Assembly: GCA_942491665.1 (NCBI GenBank)
Contig: CALOBR010000015.1
Location: forward strand, 7,908 to 71,907
DNA length: 64,000 bases
Reading direction: 5' to 3'
Source of the DNA: Jiangellales bacterium
GTDB lineage: Bacteria; Actinomycetota; Actinomycetes; Jiangellales; Jiangellaceae
The notes beneath the pieces are model-generated. The model saw only the letters and a program-made list of their open reading frames with translations. It did no database searches and was not told where the DNA came from. Below are positions 38,726-62,575 of the stretch, piece after piece (position 1 is the stretch's first letter; each line of letters starts with the position of its first letter). The position numbers were made by a program, and so were the translations under genes.

Positions 38726-38925
38726 GTCCTATCGCCGCCTGTGGACGCACCAAGACCCGGCGTCGCTTCCGCCCGCTGTGGGGCAGGTCGATGACCGGCG
38801 TGGAGCCGACGACGACACCCTGAACGTGCCACAACAACTCGCCACGAGTCAGGACCACGCCGTCAGCGACGTCGTTCGAGATGTGCTCATCCGGCACCGC
38901 GCCGCCAGCTGAGAATCGCCCACAC
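38726..38925 (+). repeat. tRNA-3'-like cassette-boundary repeat R1 (long form)
   Basis: GTCCTATCGCCGCCTGTGGACGCACCAAGACCCGGCGTCGCTTCCGCCCGCTGTGGGGCAGGTCGATG, followed by a roughly 120-nt tail ending CCAGCTGAGAATCGCCC. Confidence 0.8.
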
Positions 38926-39058
38926 AGCCCGGCGACCTGGCCCCGCTCGTTCAGACCCGTTGCCCAGGACACGCCCCCCGAGGGTGCCCATGTCCGTACG
39001 CTCAGCTCGACCAGACGCGCACGGCCGGCGCCCCGTCACCCGCCGGTGGAGGCGACCT

Positions 39059-39151
39059 GATGACCAAGCTCCAGCAGCTCGCCGAACTGAAGAGCCAGGG
39101 ACTGCTCAGCGACGCACAGTTCACGGCCGCGAAGGCCAAGCTGCTGGGCTG
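39059..39151 (+). CDS. 30-aa SHOCT-domain mini-protein (not in the ORF track)
   Basis: ATG 39059 is 8 nt after GGAGG. Translation MTKLQQLAELKSQGLLSDAQFTAAKAKLLG matches the SHOCT consensus (L--L--L---G-LS--EF---K--LL). Confidence 0.5.
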
Positions 39152-39212
39152 AGAGGCTGGGTAGCGCGTCCGCCGCCGGGCTCGGTAGCCTGGAGAAGAG
39201 GGTGAGGGACGG

Positions 39213-40622
39213 ATGACAGCGGCGCGCATCGCGATGCTTGCCAGTGCCCTCGTCTTGCTCGCCGCCGCCTGCACGGGCGGCACATCCACCTCGACGGCAC
39301 CGACGACGTCGGCCGATGCTGCTGGCCCTGAGCTGGTGATCTGGGTCGGAGACGTGGCCGAGCAGACCATAGAGTTCCAGGTCGCCGTTGATGAGGCGGG
39401 AGCGGTCACCGGCACGGTGTCGAGCCCTCTCGACGACGAACCGGCCGTCCCGATCGATGGTTCGGTCGACGGTGAGTCGTTCACCATTCGGATTCCCGCG
39501 GTCGCAGTGGTGTTCGAGGGCGAGTTCTCGGGCGACACCTTGACCGGGACGTGGTCCCAGTCGGGGACCGAACTCCCGGTCACGATGCAACGTCGTGATC
39601 AGCCGCTCGTCCTCAAGCGACCGCAGGAGCCCGCTACCCCCTTCCCGTACGAGTCGACCGACGTGAGGTTCGACAACGCCGACGTCTCGCTCGCCGGCAC
39701 CCTCGTCATCCCCGCCGGCGACGGGCCGTTCCCGGCCGTCGTGCTGGTGTCGGGATCCGGCGCACAGGATCGCGACGAAACCCTCCTCGGGCACCGGCCC
39801 TTCCTCGTGCTGGCTGACAGGTTCGCGCGGCGTGGAATCGCCTCGCTGCGGTACGACGACCGTGGGGTGGGCGGATCCACCGGAGGTCCCCTCGGTGCCA
39901 CCACGGCCGATCTGGCGACCGATGCCGCGGCGGCGGTCGCCTACCTCGATGCCAACCCGAGGACCGGATCGGTCGGCATCGTCGGTCACAGCGAAGGCGG
40001 AATCATCGGCCCCATGGTCGCCGGGGAGTCCGATGCGGTCGAGTTCGTCGTACTACTGGCCGGCCCCGGTCTCCCGGGACGCGACGTCCTGCTCCGGCAG
40101 ACAGAGGATCTCATGCGTGTCGCAGGCGCGTCCGAGGCAGACATCGCGTGGCAGCTCGACTGGCGATCGCAGATCGTGGATGTATCAGCCTCGGGGCTCC
40201 CTGCGGCCGAGGCCGCGCGTGAGATCAGGGCCCTGGCCTCGGCCGCGCTCACGAACCCGCCCGACGGTGTGACCGATCCGCTCGCTCCGACGCTTGCCGA
40301 TACGTTGGTCAAGGCTTTCGCCGATCCGTGGATGCGGTCCTTCCTCGCCTACGACCCGGCACCGGCCCTCGTTGCGCTCGACATCCCGGTCCTGGCGCTC
40401 GTCGGGAGCTTGGATCTCCAAGTCTCGGCAGAGGAGAACATCCCGGCGCTCGACGACGCGCTCGCCGCCAACCCGGCGGCGACAGTGATGGAGTTGGCGG
40501 GCCTGAACCACCTCTTCCAGACCGCGACCACGGGTGCCGTCTCCGAGTACGCCTGGATCGAGGAGACGTTCGCTCCCTCCGCGATCGACATCATCGCGAG
40601 TTGGATCCTCGAGCACAGCTGA
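39213..40622 (+). CDS. alpha/beta-hydrolase lipoprotein
   Basis: Signal peptide with lipobox LLAAAC. Nucleophile elbow GHSEGG. 469 aa. Confidence 0.8.
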   Translation: MTAARIAMLASALVLLAAACTGGTSTSTAPTTSADAAGPELVIWVGDVAEQTIEFQVAVDEAGAVTGTVSSPLDDEPAVPIDGSVDGESFTIRIPAVAVVFEGEFSGDTLTGTWSQSGTELPVTMQRRDQPLVLKRPQEPATPFPYESTDVRFDNADVSLAGTLVIPAGDGPFPAVVLVSGSGAQDRDETLLGHRPFLVLADRFARRGIASLRYDDRGVGGSTGGPLGATTADLATDAAAAVAYLDANPRTGSVGIVGHSEGGIIGPMVAGESDAVEFVVLLAGPGLPGRDVLLRQTEDLMRVAGASEADIAWQLDWRSQIVDVSASGLPAAEAAREIRALASAALTNPPDGVTDPLAPTLADTLVKAFADPWMRSFLAYDPAPALVALDIPVLALVGSLDLQVSAEENIPALDDALAANPAATVMELAGLNHLFQTATTGAVSEYAWIEETFAPSAIDIIASWILEHS

Positions 40623-40886
40623 CGCCAGCCGGGGTCGCGTGGCTCTCGACCTGTGCGGGAATCCAGTCGGGTGCCATCTCGGCGATCGACGAGCTGTGTC
40701 GCGAGTCCCGCGTCTGCGTCCTTCAGGGACTCAGAACGAGGTGTGCTGGGCTCGGATGAGTGCCACGGCTGCACCACGGGGGCCACGCACCGCCAACGCG
40801 TTGTGGTGATGTTGCGGTCGATCACTGAGCACCGCAGGTCCCGCAGCGCAACACGCATCCTCAGCCGCGGTTCTGTCGTCCTCCGG

Positions 40887-41080
40887 GTGTCCTGTCGCCG
40901 CCTGTGGACGCACCACGACCCGGCGTCGACTCCGCCTGCTGTGGGGCCGGTCGATGACGAGGCTTGGGCCGGCGATGGCACCCTGAACTCGCTGCAGAAA
41001 CTCGCCAGGAGTCTGGGCCGCGCGGTCAGCGACGTCGTTCGAAGTGCGCTCAGCCGGTACCTCGCCGACAGTTCACCCAC
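40887..41080 (+). repeat. tRNA-3'-like cassette-boundary repeat R2 (long form)
   Basis: GTGTCCTGTCGCCGCCTGTGGACGCACCACGACCCGGCGTCGACTCCGCCTGCTGTGGGGCCGGTCGATG plus a tail homologous to those of R1, R7 and R8. Confidence 0.8.
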
Positions 41081-41099
41081 TGCGGTCGCCTCCCGCGTG

Positions 41100-44009
41100 T
41101 CAGCCGACCGCGAGCGCAAGTGCCTGCTCTTCCGACAGGGATGCGCCGAGTCCCACCTCTGCTTGAAACCCGTCACCCAAGGCGTGGTGCGAGCGGGAGA
41201 ACCGGTAGAGGGAGGCGAACAAGGGCCAGACTGGTGCTCGGGCGGTGGCTGCGCCCCACAACTGGGCGGCGCGGACGGCGTCGCCCTCCGCCTCAGCGAT
41301 GGCAGCGAGCGGCTGGAGGGCGAGGCCGAACTGGAACGTGTTGCCGGTGTCGAGGGCGATCTGCGCGGCGCGGAGGGCCGGGGCACGAGCAGCCTTGTCG
41401 TCGCCGCTCTTCACCAGAGCGCATGCGCGCACCACCAGGCTGCTCTGCTCGTAGGGGACTTGGTGCTGGCGACGGCTGTAGGTCTCGCAGGCCGCGGCGT
41501 CGCTCAGGCACCTGTCGATGTCGTCTCGCGCGTAGCGGGCGAGTGCTCCCACCATGAGCAGGTGAGCCTGCAGCTGGTGGTCCTCAGGACCGCCGACCTC
41601 GCTCGCACGAGCGATGGTGGCGGCCGTGTTGTCGGTGACCGCATCATCGAAACACTCCAGCTGAGCCAGGTGTGCCGCGCACCAAGCCTCCACGACCGGC
41701 GCGCCCTCCTCCTGACCGATGCGGTAGCCCTGTCGCAGCACCTGGCGAGCCGCCGCGATGTCACCGGCGGCCAGCAGCTGCATCCCCCCGCGGTGCCAGG
41801 CAAGGACGCCGAGACCGGATTGATCGCCCACCTGACGGAACAGAGCTTCGGCGCGGTCGCAGGCCCGCATCGCCCAGGTCAGATCGCCGCAGAGGTAGGC
41901 GCCCGTCACCAGCTCGACCCATGCCCACGCCAAAGCGTCGGCGTCGGCCCCTGCCGCGTCAGCCTCTTCCACGATGGCCTTCAGCGACACGAGCTCGGCG
42001 CCCAAGTCCGCAGGGAGTGCCCAGAACACCCGCCCGATGGCTCGCACGAACGGCAGCGCCTGCGACGCCGCCTCGTACGCGACCGACCAGTCCAACGCCG
42101 CCCGGAGATTGGCCATCTCCCTGGCTGCCCGCGCCAGCCCCGCGCCGGATCGCGGACCGTTCATCTCTGCGCTTGCTTCCTCCGCCACCTGCCGGTAGCG
42201 GCTGCTGAAGGCCCGGCCTGCCAGCGTCGTCTCACCCCTGTCGTCCAGGCGCTCGGCCGCGAACTGACGGACGACGAAGAGCAGTCGGTAGCGCGTGTCC
42301 TGCCCAACAGTCCGGGTGTCGAGCAACGCCGACTCGACAAGGGTCGCTACACAGCGACGGCTCGAGGCGGCAGTCGTCCCGGGGACGGCGCCCGCGATCG
42401 CCTCCGCCGCGGGGGCGTCGAAGTCGGCCGGGAACACCGACAGCCACTCCAGCACGCGCTGGCATCTGGCGCTGAGCGTGGAGTAGCTCCAGTCGATGGC
42501 CTGGGCCACAGTGGCGTGATGGTCGATACGAGCGACCTGAGCCGGGCCGTGGAGGAACTCACCGTCCAGCCCTTCGTTGATCTCCCGCACCGTCATCTGA
42601 TGGGAGCGGGCTGCGGCCAGCTCCAGCGCAAGCGGCAGCCCGTCCAGAGCGCGGCACAGCCGGACTATCTCTGCGGCCGTGGCAGGCGGCACGTCCGCCG
42701 GTCGCCAGCCACGCAGCTGAAGGAACAGGGTGGCGGCGGCTGACTCGAGCGCCTGCTGGGTGTCAGCACCCGCGGCGGGTACCTCCAGCGGTGGCACGTC
42801 CCAGCGGGTCTCCCCACTCACCCGAAGGCGAACCCTGCTGGTGGCGAGCACCCGCAGCGCTGCTGCCCGGTCCAGCCATGACAGGACTATCGCGGCCAGG
42901 ACGTCGGCGACGTGCTCGCAGTTGTCGAGGATCAGCAATACTGCGCGGTGCTCCAGATGCCTGCGAATCGCGACCTGCTGCGGCACCCCTGGAGCAGCAA
43001 CGACGCCGAGCGTGCCAGCGACTTGGCGCAGCACGCCGGCAGCGTCATTCGCGGCGGTCAAGTCGACCCACCACACACCATCAGCGAATCGTGTGCGAAC
43101 GACCCGGGCCACCTCCATCGCCACCCGAGACTTGCCGACACCGGCGCCACCGTGCAGCGTCACCAGCCGCTGAGAACCCAGCAGCTCGGCAATGCGCCCG
43201 ATCTGCTCCAGCCGGCCCACGGTGGTGGTCAGCGGAGTTGGGACGACCAGCGGTGGCTCGGGTGGCTGGGGGTCGAGGTGCGGATCCTGACGCAGAATCT
43301 GCCACTGGAGGCGCTGCAGCGGTGGGGACGGCTCCATCCCCCACTCCGTGGCGAGCCGCATACGGAGGCGCTCATAGGCACGCAACGCCTCGACCTGTCG
43401 GCCCGAGCGGTACAACGCCAGCATCAGCAGCCGCCACCGCGTCTCCCGCATCGGCTGATCCACAAGTGCCCGCTGCAGCTCCTCGACAACCTGGGCGTGT
43501 CGACCCAGGTCAAGATCAGCCTCGATGCGGGCTTCCCGAACCTGCTCCCACTGCTCCCGTAACCATTCCACTTGCTCCCGTCGCCGCGCCGTGTCGGCCA
43601 GGTCTAGGAGAGGTTCTCCGCGCCACAGGTTCTCGGCGTCAGCCAGGCGTCGCCGCCGGGTCACCGGGTCGACATCCACAGTGGCCTGCGAGTCGCAGAC
43701 GAGGGCGCTGTGGAGACGGGCGGCGTCGACGGCATCGGGAGGCACAGCGAGCCGGTACCCGTCCGCGCTCGTCGCAACCGAGTCAGAGCCCAGGCATCGG
43801 CGAAGCCGCGACACGTGGCTGCGCAGCGACTCGGCTGCGGTGCGAGGCGGGTCGTCACCCCACAGCGCGATCTCACAGTCGATCCGCGGGACGGTGCGAG
43901 CGACGTTCAGCGCCAGCAGTGACAGCAGCGCACGCTCCTTGGCCATCAGCGGCTCCGACGCGGCACAGGCGGACCTGACCCGGACGGGCCCGAGCACATC
44001 GACCTGCAT
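41100..44009 (-). CDS. AfsR/SARP-family regulator (winged helix + BTAD + NB-ARC + TPR)
   Basis: ATG 44009 (MQVDVLGPVRV). BTAD region (LMLALYRSGRQVEALRAYERLR), P-loop GGAGVGKSRVA, and a long TPR-like C-terminus. Confidence 0.85.
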   Translation of the reverse strand: MQVDVLGPVRVRSACAASEPLMAKERALLSLLALNVARTVPRIDCEIALWGDDPPRTAAESLRSHVSRLRRCLGSDSVATSADGYRLAVPPDAVDAARLHSALVCDSQATVDVDPVTRRRRLADAENLWRGEPLLDLADTARRREQVEWLREQWEQVREARIEADLDLGRHAQVVEELQRALVDQPMRETRWRLLMLALYRSGRQVEALRAYERLRMRLATEWGMEPSPPLQRLQWQILRQDPHLDPQPPEPPLVVPTPLTTTVGRLEQIGRIAELLGSQRLVTLHGGAGVGKSRVAMEVARVVRTRFADGVWWVDLTAANDAAGVLRQVAGTLGVVAAPGVPQQVAIRRHLEHRAVLLILDNCEHVADVLAAIVLSWLDRAAALRVLATSRVRLRVSGETRWDVPPLEVPAAGADTQQALESAAATLFLQLRGWRPADVPPATAAEIVRLCRALDGLPLALELAAARSHQMTVREINEGLDGEFLHGPAQVARIDHHATVAQAIDWSYSTLSARCQRVLEWLSVFPADFDAPAAEAIAGAVPGTTAASSRRCVATLVESALLDTRTVGQDTRYRLLFVVRQFAAERLDDRGETTLAGRAFSSRYRQVAEEASAEMNGPRSGAGLARAAREMANLRAALDWSVAYEAASQALPFVRAIGRVFWALPADLGAELVSLKAIVEEADAAGADADALAWAWVELVTGAYLCGDLTWAMRACDRAEALFRQVGDQSGLGVLAWHRGGMQLLAAGDIAAARQVLRQGYRIGQEEGAPVVEAWCAAHLAQLECFDDAVTDNTAATIARASEVGGPEDHQLQAHLLMVGALARYARDDIDRCLSDAAACETYSRRQHQVPYEQSSLVVRACALVKSGDDKAARAPALRAAQIALDTGNTFQFGLALQPLAAIAEAEGDAVRAAQLWGAATARAPVWPLFASLYRFSRSHHALGDGFQAEVGLGASLSEEQALALAVG

Positions 44010-44687
44010 GGCACCCTCGCAGATGTCCTGCCCACCAATGTACGAGTGCGGTCGGCGTGCCGGTAGGGAAACCCGTCCCGAGAAGTCGCCCACCCCATCC
44101 CGTGATCCACGCTGAATCGTCAGCCCGCCAGTGACGAGGGGACTCTCATGCGGTTGACCTGACACGGCCGCCACCGCACGCTACTAGCAGTGACACGGCC
44201 CGGTACGGGGGCGGCCATGTAGTCACGCGATACAGAGTTGGGGGACCCGAGCCGTCCAGCCCGCACAGCACGGCTTCGCACGCACCACAGCCAGGGCGCA
44301 CTGGTGAAGAAACTGCGAAACGAATCGCTGGTGCAGCAACAAGTGGGGGCGGCTACCGACAGTGCCCCCACTGTTACTGGCGGACGGGCCTTCCCGTCTA
44401 CCGCGGACTTGCGCGGTCCGATCGGCTTCCAGGTGCGTCTATCCGCCGCGTCGCGTGCGCCCTCATCTCGGTCACTTAGGCGTCAGTTCTTCGCGCTGGC
44501 GCGTCGGCAGTGCGCCGGGAGATAGGTTGCAGCGGGCAGGTGATCAGGGCCGCGCTGCTTGTCCGATTGGGGCGTGCTGACCGCCAGCCCTCGTCGATGG
44601 CCTACGCCTCTGGACCGCGAACCCGGGAGGGAGTAACCACGGGAGCGACGAGTGAAGTGCCGCTCGGCCAGAGTCTGGGGGTGGGCC

Positions 44688-45434
44688 ATGGACGTATCGA
44701 TGGTGGAGGTCGCTTCAGGGGTGTGGCAGGCGCGGGCTCAGCACGTGTGCTGGGTCCTGATCGTCGACGGTGCCGGGGTCACCCTCGTCGACACTGGCTA
44801 TCCCGGCGACAAGGAGCGGGTGATCGCGTCACTGGGGAAGATCAGGCGGGCACCGGCCGACGTCGATGCCGTCGTGCTCACCCACGCTCACCCGGACCAC
44901 CTCGGTAGCGCGGAGTACTTCCGCTCCCAGGTGGGCAAGCCGGTGTGGGTGCATGAGCAGGAGGAGGCCAACGCCACCGGCGAGCGCGTCGAGCAAGTGT
45001 CGATCGCGACGCTGCTGAAGATGGCGTGGCGGCCCAGCGTCCTGGTGTGGTTCGTGCAGGTAGGGGCCGGGTTGAAGGCCGCGCAGATCCAGCGGCTCGG
45101 CGCGGTGGAGAAGACCTACAGCGGAGGCGCGTTGGACGTCCCGGGCCGCCCGCTGGCGGTGCACACGCCCGGCCACACCTCCGGGCACGCGGCGCTGCAC
45201 CTGCCCGATCAGGGTGTGCTGGTGGCCGGGGACGCGTTGATGACCGAGCACGCCCTGTCCACGTCGAGCGGCCCGCAGCTGCTTCCCGACTTCTTCAACA
45301 CCGACACGACCCAAGCCCGGGCGTCGCTGGAACTCCTGCGCCCGCTCGGCGCCGACGTCGTCATCCCCGGACACGGCCCCGTCTTCCACGGCACCCCGAA
45401 CCAGGCCGTCGACCTCGCGCTCGAGCACAGATAG
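44688..45434 (+). CDS. MBL-fold metallo-hydrolase
   Basis: THAHPDH motif. 248 aa counted from ATG 44688. Confidence 0.8.
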   Translation: MDVSMVEVASGVWQARAQHVCWVLIVDGAGVTLVDTGYPGDKERVIASLGKIRRAPADVDAVVLTHAHPDHLGSAEYFRSQVGKPVWVHEQEEANATGERVEQVSIATLLKMAWRPSVLVWFVQVGAGLKAAQIQRLGAVEKTYSGGALDVPGRPLAVHTPGHTSGHAALHLPDQGVLVAGDALMTEHALSTSSGPQLLPDFFNTDTTQARASLELLRPLGADVVIPGHGPVFHGTPNQAVDLALEHR

Positions 45435-45557
45435 CCATGCCCCAGACACGGACACCAGCCAGCCGCCCGGGCCATGGCGCGGCGGCAGCGGCGGTGTGCT
45501 GTCAGGCGTGGAAGACCACTGAGGGCGAGACCGTGACGTCTCGAGATTGGGGACCCC

Positions 45558-45863: not shown

Positions 45864-46076
45864 CAGGCCCGACGAAGGCAGTACCGGGGTGTCATCGCAC
45901 CAGCGATGACAAGTGCCACGTGCTCATCCTTACGTCGACCACTACACGCTCACCATCATCGATCCCCAACCATCACCGCGCTGCGGGCGATGCAGACCGC
46001 CCCACTCCGCCGCGCGCTGGGCGCGCTGCTTGCGGCCCGGAATGCGAGTGCCGCAGTTGTCCTGGTGCTGGGTGGT

Positions 46077-46349: not shown

Positions 46350-46398
46350 CAGGGCGAAGTGGGCTTGGCTTCCCGCAGGACTTGTTCGGGGGTCCGGG

Positions 46399-55585: not shown

Positions 55586-56610
55586 GTGTGGGTGTCTCCC
55601 TGGTCCGGCGGCTCGGGGGCGGTAGCGGTGGTGGCTGCCGCTGAGGGAACCGGGGCGGGCGGGGCCGGCTCCTGCGGGGAGAGCACGCGGACAGCGCACG
55701 GCAGCGCCCGGTGGCCCAGCGTCAAGGTGGCGGGCCTCGTCGTGCCGACGGGGGGCAACGTCCAGACAGGCGCCTGCTGCTCCTCGACCAGCAGCCCCCG
55801 AGCCTGGGTGGAAGCGACCTCAGTGACCCACACGTCCGAGGCGCCGAAGAGACCGCTGGCTCGCTGGTCACCTCCGACGAACACGAGCTCGGCGAGCGTG
55901 TCGGCGCGGTCCGGCGGCGGGAAGAGCCGCGCCAGGTCGGCGGAGGCGGCGGTCGTGTCGTCGTCGTCCTCGATTCGCTCAAGGGCGGCCGTGAGGTCTG
56001 AACTGGCCGACGCAGGCAACGGCACCCGCGCGCGCAGGTCCGGGGAGAGGTACATCGGTCGCTTCTCCGTAGCCGCCGACAGGCCCCAGGGTCCGACGTT
56101 GCGGTTGGTGATGCGGTAGACGACGTAGTCGGCGAGGTGCTGGACGTCGTGCCAGTTCGGCAGGCGGAAGCCGTCGCCCATCGACGCCGGGGTCTTCTCG
56201 AGCTGCACCCAGGTACCCGACGAGGTGCGTCCGTGGAGCTTCTCGCGCACCACCGGCCCCTTGAGCCCGATGTCGGGGTACTGGGTCTTGTCGACCGCCT
56301 TATGGTGGCTCGACAGCCGCTGCCTGCTCCTCGGGAACCGCCACGCGTCGTACAGCGACGGGTCGTCCACCAGCACGTGCGCCCCGCACAGCACATCGCG
56401 CATCCGGATCACGTCGAGACCGTGCCGTTCGAGGTCGGTCAAGATCGCTGCCTCCGACGGCGTGAGGCGCTCCGTGGCGTCCAGCAGCCCCTTGCGGAAC
56501 CCGCCCTTGCGCGCAGTGATCTCCACCAGCAGCCGCACACGGGTGCGGACCCGCTCGGCATCCCGCTCGACAGCGGTGGTAGCGGCGCGACGGCGACGGC
56601 GACGAGCCAT
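55582..56610 (-). CDS. hypothetical protein with an Arg-rich N-terminus
   Basis: 342 aa. The N-terminus is MARRRRRRAATT. No domain recognised by eye. Confidence 0.55.
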   Translation of the reverse strand: MARRRRRRAATTAVERDAERVRTRVRLLVEITARKGGFRKGLLDATERLTPSEAAILTDLERHGLDVIRMRDVLCGAHVLVDDPSLYDAWRFPRSRQRLSSHHKAVDKTQYPDIGLKGPVVREKLHGRTSSGTWVQLEKTPASMGDGFRLPNWHDVQHLADYVVYRITNRNVGPWGLSAATEKRPMYLSPDLRARVPLPASASSDLTAALERIEDDDDTTAASADLARLFPPPDRADTLAELVFVGGDQRASGLFGASDVWVTEVASTQARGLLVEEQQAPVWTLPPVGTTRPATLTLGHRALPCAVRVLSPQEPAPPAPVPSAAATTATAPEPPDQGDTHT

Positions 56611-56854
56611 GGCAGGACCCTAGCGGCAGGTCCGCTCACCAGGATCTTCGGCTCAGCTCTCGCTGAGTACGGGGCAGGGCCTTCGGGGCCCACGCCCATC
56701 ACAGCTGCGCCACCTCACCACGAGTGGGCCACTGCGGCCCCTACGGTGCCAGCAGCCGACGATGCGTCCGCCAGGACCGCCAGCCGCAGTCCGCGTCCGA
56801 CCGCTCATCGGCCATGTTGGGGCGTTGCCGCGCAACCTGAACGACGATCGACCG

Positions 56855-57073
56855 GTGCGTCACTCCGCGTGTGGACGCACCCCCACGAGCGCGATCTTGC
56901 CCGCGCCTGCGTCGTTTCCGCCCACTGCGGGGCAGGTCAATGGGCGGATCTGGGTCGACGGCTACACCCTGAACGCGCTACTGCAACTCGCTTGGAGTCA
57001 GGACGGCGCGTCAGCGGCGTCGTTCGAGACGCGCCCAGCGGGCGCCTCGCGACCAGCTCAGAATCGCTCTCAC
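56855..57073 (+). repeat. tRNA-3'-like cassette-boundary repeat R8 (long form, expanded centre, diverged tail)
   Basis: GTGCGTCACTCCGCGTGTGGACGCACCCCCACGAGCGCGATCTTGCCCGCGCCTGCGTCGTTTCCGCCCACTGCGGGGCAGGTCAATG plus a tail ending CCAGCTCAGAATCGCTCTCAC. Confidence 0.75.
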
Positions 57074-57146
57074 TGTGGCAGGTGCTGGCGTTTGGCCGGC
57101 TGTCGTGGACGGTCGAGGTGTTTGCGGTGGATCGCTGGTCAGTGGT

Positions 57147-57626
57147 TCACCTCGGGGGTTGTTGCGGGTGCTGTTGGAGAAGGGTGGGGGCGTGGTCGGT
57201 GCCGAGCTCGTCGAGCACGGCACGGAAGGTTGCGTACCGGTCCTCGCCGACTTGCTGAGCCCAGGATCGTTCGAGGTCGGCGATGGCGCGGTGGAGGTGG
57301 GCGGCGACGCGGTCGCCGGCGGGGGTGCGTCGCACGATCACGGCCCGTCGGTCGGTCGGGTCCGGGTCGGTGCGCACGAGTCCGAGGTCGACGAGTTCGC
57401 GGACTCGTTGGCCGATGGCTTGCTTGGAGACCCACCGACCGTCGGCGAGCTCGGTCGGGCGTGCGCCGTCCTCGGGGAGCAGGTGCAGGATCAGCCCCTG
57501 CGATCCGCGCGTGATGGGGACGTCGTGGGCCTGCTGCAGTGCCCGTACGTCCTCGGCGATGCGACGGGTGAGCCACTCCACGGCTGCCAGCACGTTGGGG
57601 GACGTCATCTCTGGGCGGGAGGACAT
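57147..57626 (-). CDS. MarR-family transcriptional regulator
   Basis: Winged-helix region (RPTELADGRWVSKQAIGQRVRELVDLGLVRTDPDPTDRRAVIVRRTPAG). Confidence 0.85.
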   Translation of the reverse strand: MSSRPEMTSPNVLAAVEWLTRRIAEDVRALQQAHDVPITRGSQGLILHLLPEDGARPTELADGRWVSKQAIGQRVRELVDLGLVRTDPDPTDRRAVIVRRTPAGDRVAAHLHRAIADLERSWAQQVGEDRYATFRAVLDELGTDHAPTLLQQHPQQPPR

Positions 57627-57659
57627 GCGACCTCGCTTCTCAACGGCGAACAGGGCTCG

Positions 57660-57692
57660 GTAGTCAATCTACTTGACCATAGTAGTCAATCT
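57660..57692. promoter_or_regulatory. candidate MarR operator: two GTAGTCAATCT direct repeats 22 bp apart, forming GTCAA/TTGAC palindromes
   Basis: GTAGTCAATCTacTTGACcataGTAGTCAATCT lies in the locally AT-rich divergent region between marR and the phosphotransferase gene. Confidence 0.45.
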
Positions 57693-57745
57693 GGTTTACG
57701 TTCCGGGGAGTTGCCTACGTCTGCCATACCCCGGAGGTGCTCCCC

Positions 57746-58930
57746 ATGGGAGTCGACACGCCACAGATGCACGAGGCCAGCATCGACCCGGACACCGACG
57801 CGGACGTGGCCGTGGAGTCGATGGTCGGGGACCGTGAGCGGCTCACCGCTGTCGTGCGCCGCGTGACCGGACGAGCCGACGCGCAGGTCGCCACCGTCAG
57901 GGTCCGCCCGGCCTCGCGCCGGGTGGAGAACTACACGACGCAGGCGCTGACCCACGTGTGGGGGACCCTGGTCGACGGGACACCCTGGCGGGTGTTCGCC
58001 AAGACGCTGCGCCCGGCCTGGCACGCCCCGCAGTGGGAGTTGATCCCGCCGCAGTTCCACGAGCAGGTCCGGCGCACGCTGGACTGGCAGGACGAACCAC
58101 GGGTCTACGCCAGCCCGCTGGCTCGCGACCTGCCGCCCGGCGTGCGGTTCCCCCACCTGCTCGCTGTCGACGACGGCGAGGAGCGCATCACCGTGTGGCT
58201 AGAGGACGTCGACGACACCCAGGCCTGGGACCCCGCCCGCTACCAGCGCACCGCCCGCCGGCTCGGGCGGCTCGCCGGCCGCTGGCCCGAACACCGCGTG
58301 GTCGACGAGCTCGGACTGCGCCGCCGGCCACATGTGCAGACGTTGTTCAGCAAGGTCACCCATGCGGACCTGCCCGCCCTCGCCGACGACGCGCTGTGGC
58401 AGACACCGGCCCTGCAGGCCGCGACCGCCCGCCACGGCGACCTGCGCGGCGACCTGGACCGGCTGGCCGCCGTAGCCCCCACCCTGGTCGAGGCCTACGA
58501 GGACCTGCCGACCGCACTCGCCCACGGCGACGCCACCCCCGACAACCTGCACGAACCCACACCAGGCGACACCGTCGCGATCGACCTCAGCTACGTCGGA
58601 CCCGCCGCCCTCGGCAGCGACCTCAGCCAGCTGCTGGTCGGCCGGTTCGAGTCCGGCGCGGCCACCGAGCACGACCTCGACGCGATCACCGCGACGCTGC
58701 TGCCGGCCTACCTCGACGGCCTCGCCGACGAGGGGCTAGACGTCGACCCAGATCACGTCGAGGCCGGGTGGGCCATCACCCTCGCCATCAGGTCGGTCTT
58801 CACGGCCCTGCTCGTCGACCACCGCCCCGACCTCGACCAAGCAACCCGAGACGAACTGCTCGCCCGCCGCGCACTCACCTGCCGCTTCGGCCTCGACCTC
58901 GCCCTGGATGTCGCCAACCGGCTCCGCTGA
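57746..58930 (+). CDS. aminoglycoside-phosphotransferase-like (APH/choline-kinase fold) protein
   Basis: ATG 57746 is 8 nt after GGAGG. Catalytic loop HGDATPDNL and the downstream IDLSYVG. Confidence 0.75.
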   Translation: MGVDTPQMHEASIDPDTDADVAVESMVGDRERLTAVVRRVTGRADAQVATVRVRPASRRVENYTTQALTHVWGTLVDGTPWRVFAKTLRPAWHAPQWELIPPQFHEQVRRTLDWQDEPRVYASPLARDLPPGVRFPHLLAVDDGEERITVWLEDVDDTQAWDPARYQRTARRLGRLAGRWPEHRVVDELGLRRRPHVQTLFSKVTHADLPALADDALWQTPALQAATARHGDLRGDLDRLAAVAPTLVEAYEDLPTALAHGDATPDNLHEPTPGDTVAIDLSYVGPAALGSDLSQLLVGRFESGAATEHDLDAITATLLPAYLDGLADEGLDVDPDHVEAGWAITLAIRSVFTALLVDHRPDLDQATRDELLARRALTCRFGLDLALDVANRLR

Positions 58931-59060
58931 ACACCCCACCGGACCGGCCCGCGGGTACCCGACCACCAGCCGACTCGCACTGCAATCACGCGGGCCTGTG
59001 AAGGGCGCCCCCACCAGCTGAGCGAGCATTGCCGCACAACTGAAGCGACCACCCCGGGAC

Positions 59061-59070
59061 CCGCGTCACA
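59061..59070 (+). repeat. displaced left tip of repeat R9 (CCGCGTCACA)
   Basis: Matches the GYGTCAC(A/T) left tip of R7, R8 and R10. It is separated from the rest of R9 by the IS110 element. Confidence 0.45.
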
Positions 59071-59087
59071 GTGGCACCCCTCTGATG

Positions 59088-60317
59088 TCAAGTGGTCATC
59101 TGAGGCGTCTTTCGCGGTGAGGTCTGTCGGGGTCGCTGAACGGGTTGTAGCGTCGGTTGCGCGGGTCCCGGGAGTGGCTGATCCGAAGTGTCGATGGGCG
59201 GGGGCAGGTCGACCGCGCTGGATTCTTGAGACGCCCCGCAGTGCCCTCCCGGGCCCGCACTCACCTCACCACCGACCGGGCCTTCGGCCGCTGCGGCGTG
59301 GGCGTCGGCGACGAGCTGGCGGTAGATCGCATCGGAGATGCGGCGCTTCAGGCAGCGGATCGCTTCCATCGGTTTCTTGCCTTCGGCTCGCTTGCGTCGG
59401 TAGTAGGCCCGCCCGTCGCAGTCCACCCGCAGCCGGCTGATCGCGGCGATCATGTGGTTCATCCGCCGGTTCCCGGCCCGCGAGAGCCGGTGGCGGTTCT
59501 GCTCCCCGGAGGAGGCGTCCAACGGGGCGGTGCCGGTCCAGGACGCGAAGCGGTTGCGGTCAGCGAACCGGGCCACGTCCCCGACGTCGGCCAGTACCCG
59601 GGCGGCGACGACGGGGCCGACAACCCGCAGGTCCATCAGGTGGGAGTCGCGGGCCAGGACCATGGTCTTGAGCTCGGCGGTGGCCTTCTTGATCGTGGCC
59701 TCGACCGCGACCAGCTCGGCCAGCTCGTCGGCGGCGATACGCCGGCGGGTCTTCCCGGCGATGTCCCGCGGACGCACCCCGGCCAGCATCGCCTTGGCCT
59801 GACCTGTGGTGATGTCCTTCTTCGCCTGCCCCGGCAGCAGCTCGCCGAGCAGCGCCCGCAGCCGGTTGACGGTCTGGATGCGGCGCCGAGTCAGTGCCTC
59901 GCGGCGGTCGGTGAGCATCCGCAACGCCTCCAGCTCCGCGTCGACCTTCAGCACCCGAAGCCCCTCGGTACGCACCGCCACGACCGCGATCGAGTGCGCA
60001 TCATGGGCGTCGGCCTTGCGGCCGTGCCCGACATCGAGCAGCCTCGCGCGGGCGGCGAGCTTGGCCGGTACATCGACGACGTTCTCCCCAGCCTCCAGCA
60101 GCCGCTGCGCCAGCGGGCGCCCGACACCGTTGGCGCCCTCGACCGCCCACACCCGATCCGGCCAGGCCGTGGCGTACTTGCGCATCGCCGCGTAGCCGGC
60201 CTGATCGGTGGCGAACCGGCCCGACCCGAGCATCCTCTCCTGGGCGTCGACGACCTCGATCGTGGCCGACACCTTGTGGGGATCCACCCCGATGACCACC
60301 TGCTGCACCTGCTGCAT
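59088..60317 (-). CDS. IS110-family transposase (DEDD + Tnp_20 type)
   Basis: 409 aa with N-terminal VIGVDPHK (DEDD-type) and a conserved C-terminal domain (SWTGTAPLDASSGEQNRHRLSRAGNRRMN). Confidence 0.9.
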   Translation of the reverse strand: MQQVQQVVIGVDPHKVSATIEVVDAQERMLGSGRFATDQAGYAAMRKYATAWPDRVWAVEGANGVGRPLAQRLLEAGENVVDVPAKLAARARLLDVGHGRKADAHDAHSIAVVAVRTEGLRVLKVDAELEALRMLTDRREALTRRRIQTVNRLRALLGELLPGQAKKDITTGQAKAMLAGVRPRDIAGKTRRRIAADELAELVAVEATIKKATAELKTMVLARDSHLMDLRVVGPVVAARVLADVGDVARFADRNRFASWTGTAPLDASSGEQNRHRLSRAGNRRMNHMIAAISRLRVDCDGRAYYRRKRAEGKKPMEAIRCLKRRISDAIYRQLVADAHAAAAEGPVGGEVSAGPGGHCGASQESSAVDLPPPIDTSDQPLPGPAQPTLQPVQRPRQTSPRKTPQMTT

Positions 60318-60467
60318 CTGCTGCTCCCGCCTTCGCTCGAACCGATAGGGACGGCGAGGTGGGCAGTGCTACTACGAGCAGGGCAGTCCCCTCTGGAGCC
60401 ACACCTCGTCAACGGTGCCCGACGGGCTGCAAACCGATAGCGAGCCACACCCAACAACCCGGGTGGG
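60318..60467 (-). ncRNA. candidate IS110 bridge-RNA-like leader
   Basis: Three pairs of direct repeats within 150 nt: AACCGATAG (60341, 60433), GGTGGGCAG (60359, 60463 at the IS terminus) and GAGCCACACC (60397, 60443). CCCCTCTG at 60389 matches the other IS end at 59077. Confidence 0.35.
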
Positions 60468-60543
60468 CAGCCGCCTGTGGACGCACCGCGAGGAGCGCTG
60501 GCTCGGTCCTTGAACCGCGTCGATTGCGCCCAGATAGGGCTAC
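60468..60543 (+). repeat. tRNA-3'-like cassette-boundary repeat R9 (main part, expanded centre)
   Basis: GCAGCCGCCTGTGGACGCACCGCGAGGAGCGCTGGCTCGGTCCTTGAACCGCGTCGATTGCGCCCAGATAGGGCTAC. It abuts the vapC stop codon. Confidence 0.75.
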
Positions 60544-60960
60544 CTATTCGAACGGGTCGACGATGGTCAGCCCAGGCGTTGCAGAGAAGTCACTGATGTT
60601 GCGAGTAGCCAGCTCATAGCGGCCTGCGAGGCAGATGCCTGCGATCTGGGCATCGGCCAGGGACATCGGTCGGCCAGAAGCCTCGGCCGTCACCAGGATC
60701 TCAGCGGTCTGTCGGGCCGCTGGCAGGTCGTAGACAGCGACTGCCTCGGCGAAGGTGTCCACCAGCCGGCTCCAGCGCTGCTCCAGGTCAGCGCGACGTC
60801 GCCCCGCGGGCAGCCGCCCCAGCCCTCGTTCGATCTCCTCGACCGTCACGACACAGATGGTCAGGTCCGCCGGGCCGAGGCCCTGCGCCCAGGCGAGCAC
60901 CGCTCGGTCTGGTGAGTCCCTCATGAACTCCGACACCACGTTGGTGTCAGCGATGATCAC
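60544..60960 (-). CDS. vapC: PIN-domain toxin VapC
   Basis: The MIIADTNVVSE N-terminus carries the PIN acidic residues. 138 aa. 4-nt overlap with the upstream antitoxin. Confidence 0.85.
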   Translation of the reverse strand: MIIADTNVVSEFMRDSPDRAVLAWAQGLGPADLTICVVTVEEIERGLGRLPAGRRRADLEQRWSRLVDTFAEAVAVYDLPAARQTAEILVTAEASGRPMSLADAQIAGICLAGRYELATRNISDFSATPGLTIVDPFE

Positions 60961-61193
60961 GCCAGGTCCACCCGGCGTGGTTGATCGGTGCGAGACGGCA
61001 CGTCGAGGTTAGCTCCGCCGATCTCAGCCAAGGACGCATGCAATGACAGCAGGAGGTTCTGCTCGGGAAGGTCGACGGCCGCGTCCAGGATCGCCCGAAC
61101 CTCGGCCTCGACCGAACGCCCATGCTCGGCCGCTCGCCCCCGCAGCCTCGCATGCGTCCGCTCGTTTAGCTGCCTGATCGTGAGAGTACCCAT
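60957..61193 (-). CDS. vapB: ribbon-helix-helix (FitA/VapB-like) antitoxin
   Basis: ATG 61193 is 7 nt after GGAGG. MGTLTIRQLNERTHARLRGRAAEHGRSVEAEVRAIL has the RHH pattern. Confidence 0.75.
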   Translation of the reverse strand: MGTLTIRQLNERTHARLRGRAAEHGRSVEAEVRAILDAAVDLPEQNLLLSLHASLAEIGGANLDVPSRTDQPRRVDLA

Positions 61194-61252
61194 CACCCAC
61201 CTCCTGACAGCAATGCTAGCATCCAGCAGGACGTGGAGTCGCACCCCTGTGT

Positions 61253-61330
61253 GTGTCACATCGCCGCCTGTGGACGCATCGGGACGAGAGTGATGTCGGC
61301 CGGACCTGCGTCGTTTCCGCCCACGTTGAC
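61253..61330 (+). repeat. tRNA-3'-like cassette-boundary repeat R10 (expanded centre)
   Basis: GTGTCACATCGCCGCCTGTGGACGCATCGGGACGAGAGTGATGTCGGCCGGACCTGCGTCGTTTCCGCCCAC. The centre is alignable with that of R8. Confidence 0.8.
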
Positions 61331-61438
61331 GCACGCCATTGCGCGGATGAGGCGATGGGGGGCTCGCTGCATCTGGACTGCAACACCACCACAACAGCGC
61401 CGGAGCATCCTGAGGGTGAGGGAGAGGAGGTGAGCAGA

Positions 61439-62005
61439 ATGCGTGGACACAGACTGTTCGTGACGCTGCTGGCGGCGTTCTCGATGGCTGCCATGCTGCT
61501 CAGTGGGCTGCTCGTCCTGCCGCCACGATCGGGTGACGAGGTTGCCGCACCGGACTCCGCCGGACAGCGGGTGGAGACGTCGCAGGCGATCAGCGAGGAT
61601 GATCTGGTCCTGCTGGGGCGTCGCCGTCCGGGCCACGAAGGCATCAAGGCTCGCATGCGGTGGGTCGTGCTCGGGGGGACTGTCATCGCCGCCGACATCA
61701 ACCCCACGCTGCCGGGCAACAAGTCCTACAAGGTCGTGCTGAAGGTCAAGCACCAGGGCGAGTGGGTCCGCTGCGGCGCGATGCGCACCCGCAACGTCAT
61801 GGTCGGGGAGTACGTCCCGGAGTCCGCGTGGTTCACCCGTGGACCGCGGCCGCACGAGGCCGCGATCTTCGCGGACCTCTACGGGCCGTTCGACACGATC
61901 AAGTGCCCGGGAAACCCGAGGAGTGCCAAGAAGTACCGCATCGTCCTGCCGAAGCAGCACGGCTTCGAACGGACCATCTCGCGGGTCTTCCGGATTCAGC
62001 AGTAG
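61439..62005 (+). CDS. hypothetical protein with N-terminal signal/anchor helix
   Basis: ATG 61439 is 8 nt after GGAGG. Hydrophobic N-terminus LFVTLLAAFSMAAMLLSGLLVL. No family recognised. Confidence 0.55.
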   Translation: MRGHRLFVTLLAAFSMAAMLLSGLLVLPPRSGDEVAAPDSAGQRVETSQAISEDDLVLLGRRRPGHEGIKARMRWVVLGGTVIAADINPTLPGNKSYKVVLKVKHQGEWVRCGAMRTRNVMVGEYVPESAWFTRGPRPHEAAIFADLYGPFDTIKCPGNPRSAKKYRIVLPKQHGFERTISRVFRIQQ

Positions 62006-62501
62006 TGCCTCGGTCGACCTCAGGGCCACCGAGACCAGACGGGGCCGGACTCAGGCACCGTGGATGCCGAATCCGGCCCCGGCAACTGCCACCGGGCATG
62101 GTCGCGATCCCATCGACTTCCCGGCGCGTCACCACGGCCGCGTAGCGTGCGCCCGCGGCCGTGTCACTCCGGCGCCAGTGACGAACACGCTTGCGAAGAA
62201 GGCAAGCTCGACGGACAGCCAACTGCGGACTCGAAGTGCACCCACCAGTGAGTGGACCGCATTCGGTCTGGGCGCGAGATCGTCGAGACAACCCGGGCGC
62301 ATGACATGCGCACGCACCAGACGCCGGTCAGCACCGGCTGACATGCGACGACACGCCCACTGAGCCCTCTCAGTACACATCCAGTACACGCCAGCGTGTG
62401 CACTGGATGTGTAACTGGAGAGGTACAAAGCGGACTATCCAGGCACTACGTCTGCTGGGACGCCCATCGGGAAAATGCCGTCTGGCCTGGGCAAATGCTT
62501 G

Positions 62502-62575
62502 AGCCGCCTGTGGGAATCGAACCCACGACCTACGCATTACGAGTGCGTCGCTCTGGCCAACTGAGCTAAGGCGGC
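62502..62575 (-). tRNA. tRNA-Thr (anticodon CGT)
   Basis: A 74-nt cloverleaf on the minus strand: GCCGCCT-TA-GCTC-AGTTGGCCA-GAGC-G-ACGCA-CTCGTAA-TGCGT-AGGTC-GTGGG-TTCGATT-CCCAC-AGGCGGC-T. CCA is not encoded. Confidence 0.9.

Follow-up and report, generated by a model that had tools for sequence, protein, structure and literature searches.

What assembled a string of small gene modules beside a tRNA gene in a Jiangellales bacterium? Across the 64,000 nt analysed (the window), ten repeats, all on the + strand, carve 24 kb into gene modules (array at 38.7-61.3 kb). A preliminary description had raised two readings, serial integration at the 3' end of tRNA-Thr with an att duplication at each event, and an integron-like cassette platform; it is partly supported by what follows, in its cassette platform but not in the tRNA integration as stated. 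We put at roughly 0.65 the probability that the repeats and an associated integrase, Int304, form a tyrosine-recombinase-driven cassette platform, integron-like in its working and outside the integron family. No prior description of such a site-enzyme platform was found. To our knowledge complete integrons are reported to be absent from Actinomycetota, and the array resembles an integron in that phylum.

Repeat array and site anatomy

Each repeat comprises two tandem, co-oriented sites, S1 and S2. S1 (GTGCGTCACTT-CGCCGCC-TGTGGACGCAC) has 11-bp imperfect inverted arms and an asymmetric 7-bp spacer, and S2 reads GCGTCGnTT-CCGCCCA-cTGTGGGGCAGG; arms of ~11 bp (GTGCGTC... and ...GACGCAC) thus flank CGCCGCC, or CCGCCCA in S2. 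Both are built like simple tyrosine-recombinase sites, in which two inverted arms surround a short spacer. The asymmetric spacer makes each site directional, which would explain the shared orientation throughout the array. S1 and S2 are separated by 10-36 nt, except in R5, which has the integrase gene there instead:

38722-38789, +: R1, S1, 11-nt centre, S2
40885-40952, +: R2, S1, 11-nt centre, S2
44428-44492, +: degenerate site, GTGCGTCTAT-CCGCCGC-GTCGCGTGCGCCC...GGTCACTTAGGCGTCAGT, paralogous to 62124-62192
45999: possible single degenerate site, inside cassette 3
46931-46992, +: R3, S1, 10-nt centre, S2
49445-49512, +: R4, S1, 11-nt centre, S2
50373-50441, +: R5 left part, S1, 24-nt centre, degenerate box resembling S2; forms the integrase unit's 5' leader, alignable with L171 and L169 from position 9866 onward
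51993-52095, +: R6, S1, long divergent centre, degenerate S2
54568-54637, +: R7, S1, 11-nt centre, S2
56853-56939, +: R8, S1, 30-nt centre, S2
59061-59072, +: R9 displaced left arm, CGCGTCACAGT
59073-60469, -: IS110-family insertion sequence (Pfam PF01548 and PF02371), between R9 left arm and spacer
60470-60546, +: R9 remainder, spacer, right arm, 32-nt centre, S2
61249-61336, +: R10, S1, 30-nt centre, S2 of GACGCAC type
62124-62192, +: two tandem degenerate sites, with the final array junction at ~62165; homology to L177 and L178 starts here

All ten copies of the preliminary description are present on the + strand, at the starts given there. The motif CCGCCTGYGGACGC, with at most one mismatch, has 10 matches in 64 kb, all on the + strand and within 38.7-61.3 kb, against 0.51 +/- 0.76 in dinucleotide shuffles (0 of 100 reach 10); the right-arm pattern has 11 matches versus 2.5 expected. 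A split copy and two or three degenerate copies add to these ten. The split of the ninth copy by an IS110 was likewise seen, with GCGTCACAGT (~59062-59072) parted from AGCCGCCTGTGG (60470).

Wherever a locus holds at least two copies, left-arm matches are confined to one strand (window, L005, L009, L015, L019, L021, L032, L035, L040, L103, L169-L171, L176, L177, L180 and L181), and the surroundings of Int304 in four cultured isolates gave 22 profile matches, all 22 on the integrase strand. Two tandem sites are present at most junctions; those at L177-6834, L176-78/837/4750 and L103-955 have a single site and lack the S1-centre-S2 duplication. In Pedococcus, Nocardioides and Knoellia, single sites show poor conservation of the right arm, which counts against the platform.

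Gene content of the modules

The repeats do delimit modules. Most gene calls of the preliminary description were recovered by Pfam, although SHOCT and RemA-like were not:

38790-40884: cassette 1, truncated RHH ORF (38775-38912, +), alpha/beta hydrolase (39213-40622, +) (Pfam, translation)
40953-44427: cassette 2, truncated RHH ORF (40938-41075, +), SARP/NB-ARC regulator (41100-44174, -) (Pfam)
44253-44427: remnant of an 'anchored protein' gene in cassette 2, paralogous to 61942-62179
44493-46930: cassette 3, MBL hydrolase, ABM monooxygenase, HepT/MNT (46077-46962, -) (Pfam)
46993-49444: cassette 4, MazF (47063-47452, -), RHH antitoxin (47397-47627, -), epimerase, unknown 155-aa ORF (Pfam)
49513-50372, +: cassette 5, secreted 166-aa protein
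51227-51992, -: cassette 6, HepT/MNT toxin-antitoxin pair (Pfam)
52096-54567, +: cassette 7, DUF3419 protein, GNAT-like protein (Pfam)
54638-56852: cassette 8, frameshifted RHH fragment plus a minus-strand pair of unknown genes
56940-59060: cassette 9, frameshifted RHH fragment, MarR (57147-57626, -), 397-aa protein without a family match (Pfam)
60547-61248, -: cassette 10, VapC (PIN), FitA-like RHH antitoxin (Pfam)
61337-62123, +: cassette 11, membrane-anchored hypothetical protein

At cassette 2, L039 is 96% identical and has an additional site and an intact anchored-protein gene; at the cassette 11 position, L177 has YoeB/Phd instead. Because cassette genes lie in both orientations, sometimes several per cassette, expression from a common promoter is unlikely, a point against the platform.

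An integrase gene inside a repeat

The R5 region carries two further features:

50442-51179, +: integrase remnant, 245 aa (Pfam PF00589)
51186-51226, +: S2 closing the integrase unit, GCGTCGCTTCCGGCCCACTGTGGGGCAC; same post-stop position in L169, L170 and L171

The preliminary description had recognized the integrase as truncated but had entered it as cassette content, when it is part of the repeat system: R5 has no right arm nearby, and one lies at 51196-51225, directly past the integrase stop, which places the gene inside R5. DNA comparison revealed an internal deletion of ~240 nt at the 5' end, so that residues 1-59 of a 304-aa protein are missing. The remainder has 98% identity with P0001 at 100% query coverage. 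Intact 304-aa homologs of 89-98% identity come from Knoellia, Nocardioides, Pedococcus and many metagenome-assembled genomes, and the homologs listed, in the same identity range, extend across Knoellia, Pedococcus, Nocardioides, Intrasporangium, Monashia, Phycicoccus, Jiangellales and Nanopelagicales. In all contexts examined the Int304 homologs lie between S1 and S2, mostly within a co-oriented site array. In L169, L170, L171, L180, L181 and the window, S1 precedes the start codon by 124 nt and S2 follows ~18 nt past the stop.

This linkage suggests that the repeats are the recombination sites of Int304, the name used here for this small, Xer-like 304-aa tyrosine recombinase; the link is associative, and Int304 is the presumed catalyst. 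Since its integrase lacks the first 59 codons, the window array is probably frozen unless another Int304 copy acts in trans.

Cassette differences among related strains

The preliminary description had proposed looking among relatives for variation bounded by repeats, and such variation was found. Single cassettes (secreted protein, HepT/MNT, VapBC) are common to related strains but in different neighbourhoods: 49446-50392 is 97% identical to L103, with both neighbours different; 51195-52033 is 98% identical to L113, with a different left context; and 60470-61267 is 97.7% identical to L177 8071-8868, again with different neighbours. In L171 the integrase has a sigma70-SnoaL-ferric reductase cassette upstream of it, and in L181 this cassette is found on the downstream side. 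Homology breaks off within or immediately beside the site spacers, in a 7-10-nt window; R5 and L103 part after CCGCCGCCTG, and R10 and L177 after CATCGCCGC. At six of six informative junctions the left arm stays linked to the upstream cassette, the right arm to the downstream one. L103 and L113 come from short-read assemblies, but at their junctions just ~10 nt are shared, too few to cause a mis-join. Three contigs from one sample have an identical GGT protein and tRNA-Thr with unrelated arrays on the left; one of these arrays spans at least 28 kb, comprises at least 17 sites and carries an intact Int304. Counting against a cassette platform, some strain differences are simple deletions whose ends lie elsewhere than at sites (window versus L039; L171 versus L181).

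Recurring modules, in-site breakpoints and the embedded integrase support the integron-like platform of the preliminary description. We propose that Int304 would recombine any two co-oriented sites inside the spacer, releasing the intervening DNA as a circle with one site, and that the circle would re-integrate into any other site, whether of that array or of a different one. Repeated rounds would build and reshuffle arrays whose modules, of 1-5 genes each, are rich in toxin-antitoxin pairs, while loss of a site by deletion would fuse neighbouring cassettes into multi-gene modules. The integrase gene, lying between S1 and S2, is itself in this sense carried within a site.

The tRNA-Thr locus and alternative explanations

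The right edge of the region is occupied as follows:

62193-62500: tRNA-adjoining segment, conserved in L177 and L178, containing a palindrome, outside the cassette array
62501-62575, -: tRNA-Thr(CGT) (ARAGORN; Rfam 72.6 bits)

The tRNA had been described as having the same orientation as the repeats, but ARAGORN places it on the minus strand, so that the repeats resemble the antisense of its 3' end, which faces the array. The stretch GCCGCCTGTGG is common to the tRNA 3' end and to the S1 spacer plus right-arm start. The reported collinearity is real but modest, and weaker than claimed, at about 11 identical nt: the local alignment score of 26 is reached by 2 of 5000 shuffles, and background windows have a 99th percentile of 21 and a maximum of 29. 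The score comprises GCCGCCTGTGG and CCACGACC, the latter limited to short-centre copies. tRNA-Thr is a general integration hotspot in the lineage: in L176 a PrimPol, an HTH_17 and a 368-aa integrase abut it, and L178 has a true tRNA-Thr att duplication at the same locus, an exact 44-nt duplicate of the tRNA 3' part, 7.5 kb from the tRNA and joined to a second copy of the tRNA-adjoining segment. The tRNA 3' end, which carries the spacer sequence, may have been the ancestral target.

These hotspot cases, the abutment of the array on the tRNA 3' end with 11 identical nt, and the small PrimPol element of L176, lying between an S1 site and the tRNA with GCCGCCTGTG in both, would suit serial insertion of tRNA-Thr-targeting integrative elements that left the repeats as decayed tRNA 3'-end att scars. 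We nevertheless think this quite unlikely. The window has neither such a 44-nt att duplication nor a second tRNA T-arm copy, 335 nt separate its final site from the tRNA, and the Rfam tRNA model matched none of the repeats. Across genera the repeats are much closer to one another than to the tRNA, conserving GGACGCAC, GCGTCGnTTCCGCCC and the GTGCGTCA left arm, all absent from it. The search of relatives that had been suggested revealed co-oriented copies at each locus with at least two of them, but linkage to tRNA-Thr is not general: no tRNA lies within 10 kb of arrays in Jiangellales, Knoellia, Nocardioides and Pedococcus, and MFD09779.bin.1.9 lacks repeats at its GGT locus, though several other loci of that genome carry them. 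Sedentary chromosomal integrons likewise combine sites of one orientation with small cassettes, many of them of toxin-antitoxin and GNAT type, yet a true integron or CALIN (an attC cluster without integron integrase) too diverged for standard detection is extremely improbable. Int304 scores 37.7 bits against an integron-integrase model with a cut-off of 265, the match being limited to the last 60 residues; the integrase is located within the array and shares the strand of the sites, and genes lie in both orientations. Single-strand folding of the sites is no better than shuffled (z-scores -1.1 to +1.6), in agreement with the earlier remark that they do not look like attC.

A less improbable alternative, though still unlikely, is an IS- or MITE-like element in which only the 1.09-kb S1-int-S2 unit is mobile, inserting at a single specific target motif; its non-autonomous, internally deleted derivatives would be the 55-100-nt repeats, accumulated in a permissive accessory island without mobilizing the intervening genes, and coinciding breakpoints would reflect ordinary homologous recombination between copies. 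Indeed, what L169 and L171 have in common is exactly the 1093-bp unit (93.7% identity) and nothing beyond it, their flanks being unrelated, and Knoellia has three integrase units within 14 kb. Medium-length centres keep CnCACGrGC..GATC and GCGCACCT, resembling the 5' leader and the last 8 nt of the integrase-bearing form, and short centres could be internal-deletion remnants of it. However, the 25-50 bp between two spacers are too small for movement as a circle by tyrosine recombination, and homologous recombination would spread breakpoints over the 60-100-nt repeat rather than a 7-10-nt spacer window. Cassettes are also bounded by single hybrid-site junctions, and co-orientation is strict in every array. 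A conserved RHH-like ORF follows four copies, as might be expected if the repeat were an sRNA, a terminator or an operator of that small adjacent gene. Such a transcribed or regulatory role is very unlikely: the ORF is an N-terminally truncated fragment missing at six copies, site orientation is independent of that of flanking genes, and the repeats have no Rfam match and no stable fold.

Insertion sequences at the sites

Besides the IS110 in R9, one further insertion-sequence feature was seen:

38612-38725, +: non-coding end remnant of a second IS110 lineage, abutting the R1 spacer

This remnant is 83-93% identical to L176 7325-7461, L021 and L088, and the L176 copy adjoins an intact IS110 gene. 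L019 has an insertion sequence 76% identical to that in R9 at the equivalent position of another site.

Repeat copies and site anatomy

Repeat finding and pattern searches recovered the ten repeat copies (R1 to R10) reported in the preliminary description, with the same starts and all on the plus strand. Allowing up to one mismatch, the core CCGCCTGYGGACGC matched 10 times, always on the plus strand and within 38.7-61.3 kb, against an average of 0.51 in shuffled sequence; the right-arm pattern matched 11 times in the window against 2.5 expected. Profile searches of both strands of the window found no more copies in the remaining 40 kb. The splitting of copy 9 by an IS110 element was as described, and Pfam reproduced most of the gene calls. 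A lone GCCCCACTTCGCCGC (left arm plus spacer) at 17785-17799 on the minus strand, opposite in orientation to the array and distant from it, may be a chance match. Paralogous segments are present at 44253-44487 and 61942-62179.

When the window copies were aligned with about 35 true family members found in other genomes, each repeat resolved into two sites in tandem, S1 and S2, and most junctions have the tandem pair. S1 consists of GTGCGTCACTT, the spacer CGCCGCC and TGTGGACGCAC; its arms are 11-bp imperfect inverted repeats, with GTGCGTC pairing with GACGCAC, around an asymmetric spacer of 7 bp, and G(C/A)CCCACTT is a frequent variant of the left arm. S2 consists of GCGTCGnTT, CCGCCCA and c.TGTGGGGCAGG; its right arm reads ...GTTGACGCAC in some copies, which clearly marks S2 as a site of the S1 type. 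The gap between them is 10-12 nt in five window copies, about 30 nt in R8, R9 and R10, and longer and divergent in R6.

The possibility of attC-like hairpins was dropped, as no copy folded significantly better than shuffles: single-strand DNA folds of ten sequences, covering both strands and several copies, gave z values of -1.13 to +1.62. Rfam searches likewise gave no match on the repeats, at E ≤ 1 for 36-64 kb or at gathering thresholds for the whole window, while finding the true tRNA. Judged from these null results, the repeats look like ordinary double-stranded protein-binding sites rather than attC-like hairpins or RNAs. The size and layout of the candidate site (~29 bp, inverted arms, 7-bp spacer) match those of a simple tyrosine recombinase site (28-34 bp, 6-8-bp spacer).

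The integrase Int304

The 'truncated integrase' of R5 is a 245-aa remnant of a 304-aa Xer-like tyrosine recombinase, here called Int304. It is preceded by the S1 of R5, and its stop codon is followed by a lone S2.

Integrase features of the window
50442-51179, plus strand: 245-aa Int304 remnant
51196-51225: lone S2

A protein search with the window integrase gave 4042 relatives at E ≤ 1e-20. The best 120 of these were 89-98% identical to it and nearly all 304 aa long; they came from Knoellia, Pedococcus, Monashia, Phycicoccus, Intrasporangium, Nocardioides, Jiangellales and Nanopelagicales. In every locus fetched with a full-length gene (L169, L170, L171, L180 and L181), S1 lies 124 nt 5' of the ATG and S2 about 18 nt past the stop, and Knoellia and two Nocardioides strains have the same S1-integrase-S2 layout in diverged form. 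Exactly this 1093-bp unit, at 93.7% identity, is all that L169 and L171 have in common. Relative to these two loci, the window integrase is missing about 240 nt, so that codons 1-59 are gone and this copy is probably inactive.

Int304 has the core-binding and catalytic domains (PF02899 and PF00589) in about 300 aa, lacks an arm-binding domain, and shows visible HxxR and Y motifs. Its best NCBIfam matches were XerC and XerD, both far below the family cut-offs. The integron-integrase model TIGR02249 scored 37.7 bits (cut-off 265), over residues 225-284 only, and NF011946 scored 17.5 bits (cut-off 435). By sequence, the closest solved structure was XerD 1a0p (E = 6.3e-13); Gp33 of 5vfz, which we take to be the Brujita integrase, matched more weakly (E = 2.3e-5), and mycobacteriophage matches were at most 29% identical, so that membership of the IntBrujita subgroup was rejected.

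Plasmid relatives were essentially all <60% identical, with 60-80% in one of 521 records, and phage relatives reached 51% at most. In Arthrobacter and Gordonia phages, a classical integrase is accompanied by a second, small tyrosine recombinase that is 38-51% identical to Int304; no S1- or S2-like site adjoins the homolog of Arthrobacter phage Seahorse (L175, 26187-27107). The integrase of L044, 36% identical and devoid of flanking sites, was rejected as part of the system. No P-P' site, expected on an excised integrase circle or a cassette-loss chromosome, was found in any fetched locus. On a short-read metagenome contig (L095, about 2080-2185, minus strand), codons 2-33 of an integrase homolog lie at their usual place but in reverse orientation when compared with L171, which could be either a real event at the gene start or an assembly artefact.

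Arrays in other genomes

When one genome per species was scanned with a two-arm pattern, about 20 of the 45 loci proved real; the true copies were nearly all in actinobacterial MAGs, and the type strain Ornithinimicrobium pekingense DSM 21552 carries one. A metagenome scan with an 18-mer core gave about 6 loci of the true family in 120 (L103, L113 and L095 among them), the rest being chance matches, and viral contigs had three matches to this core. Intact Int304 genes are flanked on both sides by arrays on the integrase strand.

Site positions in arrays around intact integrase genes
L171: 1612, 3633, 4775, 5937, 9109, 9877, integrase, 16145
L169: 2821, 8176, 9877, integrase, 16872
L181 and L176 (together one contig): 17 or more sites in a span of at least 28 kb

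Dispersed repeats of the MITE or REP type lie scattered over a genome in both orientations, with terminal inverted repeats and target-site duplications. Wherever a locus had two or more copies, all were on a single strand. Copies were clustered and co-oriented in the window and all fetched loci, and in four cultured isolates 22 of 22 profile matches were on the integrase strand. One MAG has copies at at least four places of a 2.6-Mb contig, with orientation differing between places.

Cassette differences between strains

The proposal that the repeats delimit gene cassettes was borne out by comparison with several close relatives, in which repeat-bounded cassettes were shared in differing contexts. 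L103 matches window 49446-50392, the secreted-protein cassette from R4 to R5, at 97% identity, with different DNA on both sides; the homology ends exactly after CCGCCGCCTG (R5 spacer). L113 matches 51195-52033 (HepT/MNT) at 98%, from the S2 right arm to the S1 of R6, and its left neighbour is not the integrase. L177 matches 60470-61267 (VapBC, R9 to R10) at 97.7%; the homology ends after CATCGCCGC, and the following cassette is YoeB/Phd where the window has the anchored protein. A sigma70-SnoaL-ferric reductase cassette is common to L171 and L181 from site to site, preceding the integrase in L171 and following it in L181, and L180 and L181 are 99% identical from S1 to the post-integrase S2 and unrelated beyond.

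At all six informative junctions, the upstream cassette kept the left arm and the downstream cassette kept the right arm, the partition that a crossover within or beside the spacer predicts. Single hybrid-site junctions were also seen, with left arm, spacer and then the start of the cassette. Some strain differences are plain deletions that took out a site and fused its neighbours (window versus L039; L171 versus L181), which would explain multi-gene modules of mixed gene orientation. The sole candidate for a repeat-only insertion polymorphism, also between L171 and L181, was a 345-nt indel with non-repeat flanks and was uninformative. Upstream of the MBL gene of the window, the 3' end of an 'anchored protein' gene and a degenerate site remain; in L039 the gene at this position is still complete and has a site of its own.

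The tRNA-Thr locus

ARAGORN found one tRNA in the window, tRNA-Thr(CGT), whose location on the minus strand means that its 3' end faces left, towards the array.

Features of the tRNA-Thr locus
Window 62501-62575, minus strand: tRNA-Thr(CGT)
Window 62193-62500: array-tRNA segment, conserved in other strains, with the long palindrome ACATCCAGTACACGCCAGCGTGTGCACTGGATGT
L176 7461-9822: 2.4-kb PrimPol-HTH_17-368-aa integrase element between an S1 site and tRNA-Thr
L178 2096-2348 and 9535-9898: flanks of a 7.5-kb element, comprising an exact 44-nt copy of the tRNA 3' part together with 210 nt of tRNA-proximal segment

The likeness of the repeats to this tRNA was upheld in part. The short-form consensus scored 26 against the tRNA plus strand, a score reached by 2 of 5000 shuffles (in background windows, the 99th percentile was 21 and the highest score 29), but only about 11 nt are shared: GCCGCCTGTGG and, in short copies, CCACGACC. 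The further proposal that the repeats are att duplications of the tRNA 3' end was not supported, these two stretches alone being shared and the window having no second copy of the tRNA T-arm. The last site of the window, at ~62165, is separated from the tRNA by 335 nt that are kept in other strains and are part of the classical att region. Arrays adjoin tRNA-Thr in the window, L176 and L177, and no tRNA was found near the Int304 arrays of L169, L171, L172, L173, L182 and L183 in the 17-21 kb fetched (none within 10 kb). Because of the missing duplicate, the conserved 335-nt gap and the tRNA-free arrays of other genera, we conclude that the array is next to the tRNA and not made of tRNA copies. 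The spacer sequence shared with the tRNA may record an ancestral target.

The tRNA-Thr locus is a hotspot in its own right. Three contigs from one sample have an identical GGT protein and the same right flank and tRNA-Thr, with unrelated DNA leftward. Left of the tRNA, one of the three has a site array. In L176 the PrimPol element directly adjoins the tRNA and a site array lies on its far side, and L178 has a classical element marked by the exact 44-nt duplicate of the tRNA 3' part, which is absent from the window. GCCGCCTGTG is a candidate for the core used by the 368-aa integrase of the PrimPol element.

A proposed cassette platform and its alternatives

The evidence best supports a cassette platform operated by a simple tyrosine recombinase. 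In this reading, Int304 would join co-oriented sites by recombination within the spacer, the DNA between two sites would leave as a circle with one site, and the circle would re-insert at other sites. The main rival holds that only the 1.09-kb integrase unit is mobile, the short repeats being what internal deletion has left of it. The likeness of the medium-length centres to the integrase leader speaks for this rival; the spacer-precise cassette breakpoints, the single-site junctions and the strict co-orientation speak against it. The two views are not mutually exclusive. In its full form, the cassette-platform reading is that Actinomycetota possess a second gene-capture system, of independent evolutionary origin, that fills the role of an integron with other components: a 304-aa Xer-like recombinase that spreads horizontally, with its gene inside one of its sites, would excise and re-insert cassettes at arrays of canonical ~29-bp double-stranded sites, generating strain-level variation in toxin-antitoxin, regulator and enzyme genes. 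Taken jointly, we give these propositions slightly less than an even chance (about 0.45).

Relation to known systems

The proposed platform would work like an integron and like tandem integrative elements, yet it falls within neither class. As in sedentary chromosomal integrons, a tyrosine recombinase is tied to co-oriented sites delimiting small accessory cassettes, cassette content varies between close strains, toxin-antitoxin cassettes are frequent, and the sites are invaded by IS110-family elements. IS1111 elements insert into attC in integrons. Unlike those of integrons, the integrase is Xer-like rather than IntI and lies within a site inside the array, on the strand of the sites, instead of at the edge and divergent; the sites appear double-stranded, ~29 bp long with inverted arms and a spacer, whereas attC sites are folded single-strand hairpins; and the cassettes are often multi-gene, in either orientation. 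No attI or Pc promoter was identified. Integron membership was therefore rejected: an array of co-oriented sites with exchangeable cassettes was found, but not IntI, attC folding or an edge-divergent integrase with attI and Pc. Among 2484 genomes surveyed in a published study, none from Actinobacteria was reported to have a complete integron (PMC4889954).

The tycheposon islands of Prochlorococcus are tRNA islands formed through serial integration, with partial tRNA copies as separators (bioRxiv 10.1101/2020.12.28.424599). Like them, the window has a variable island by a tRNA, with successive modules parted by short co-oriented repeats and an integrase kept in only some modules, along with degenerate integrases and remnants. 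The present repeats differ in sharing only ~11 nt with the tRNA, in their own conserved two-site structure and in forming arrays away from tRNAs. Tandem tRNA-targeting elements were accordingly rejected, since the flanking repeats are not tRNA 3' copies and the array is not always at a tRNA.

In SCC elements, serine recombinases supplied by one of the modules act at the 3' end of rlmH, and the pdif modules of Acinetobacter have sites that alternate in orientation and use the host XerC/D. With SCCmec composite islands and pdif modules, the arrays would have in common short-site-bounded modules and composite arrays via serial insertion, but their sites are co-oriented and their integrase is dedicated and horizontally spreading.

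With XerC/D-dif, Cre-loxP and Brujita Int, the system shares a recombinase of ~300 aa without an arm-binding domain and a short site in which inverted arms enclose a spacer of 6-8 bp. It differs from XerC/D-dif in that Int304 is below the XerC and XerD cut-offs, and from dif or attP/attB in that its sites occur in arrays of tandem pairs rather than singly. Simple tyrosine recombinases mobilise phages and islands (PMC8138268). Such recombinases and the tRNA islands of serial integration were already known; full-text literature searches turned up no account of the Int304 site-array system.

If a separate Xer-like cassette platform does exist, modular gene capture evolved more than once, and the platform would help to account for fine-scale strain variation in soil Actinomycetota. 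The system is open to experiment because Knoellia sp. S7-12, Nocardioides sp. dk4132, Nocardioides terrigena and Pedococcus bigeumensis, all of them cultured, have intact Int304 copies. Being small and having a short, GC-rich site with a direction, the recombinase could also serve as an engineering tool for high-GC Gram-positive bacteria.

Insertion sequences and other features

Two distinct IS110-family lineages insert right by the S1 spacer, a parallel with IS1111 at the attC sites of integrons; by this analogy, the targeting of S1 resembles that of attC. The window IS110 and a 76%-identical IS of L019 occupy the same position, between GCGTCA..G and AGCCGCC. The second lineage is represented in the window by an end remnant, and the same sequence was found in three other loci, in one of them by an intact transposase gene.

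IS110-family insertions at S1
Window 59073-60469: first lineage
L019 about 1603-2995: first lineage
Window 38612-38725: second lineage, 115-nt end remnant adjoining the R1 spacer on its left
L176 7183-7440: second lineage, by an intact transposase gene
L021 2102-2239: second lineage
L088 4124-4257: second lineage

Within the window IS110, at 59172-59268 on the plus strand, Rfam gave a sub-threshold match to ncrMT1302, an sRNA of Mycobacterium (37 bits, against a gathering score of 45).

A small conserved ORF, ...DDDTLNxLQxLAxSxDRAVSDVVRDALSRYLAAS*, follows S2 in four window copies.

Post-S2 ORF in the window
38775-38912: R1, in frame
40938-41075: R2, in frame
about 54640-54762: R7, frameshifted
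about 56940-57063: R8, frameshifted

Its match to the RHH_1 profile is limited to the C-terminal two helices (E = 0.0016). The ORF was also found in L031, L032, L038, L103, L110, L169, L171 and L177, and in L169 and L170 it comes after the post-integrase S2; it could be either a gene fragment or a partner protein. Elsewhere in the window, 9940-10022 is 90.6% identical over 85 nt to positions 1780-1864 of L037, from another MAG, and looks like a transposon end by the 485-aa ORF at 10181-11638 on the minus strand.
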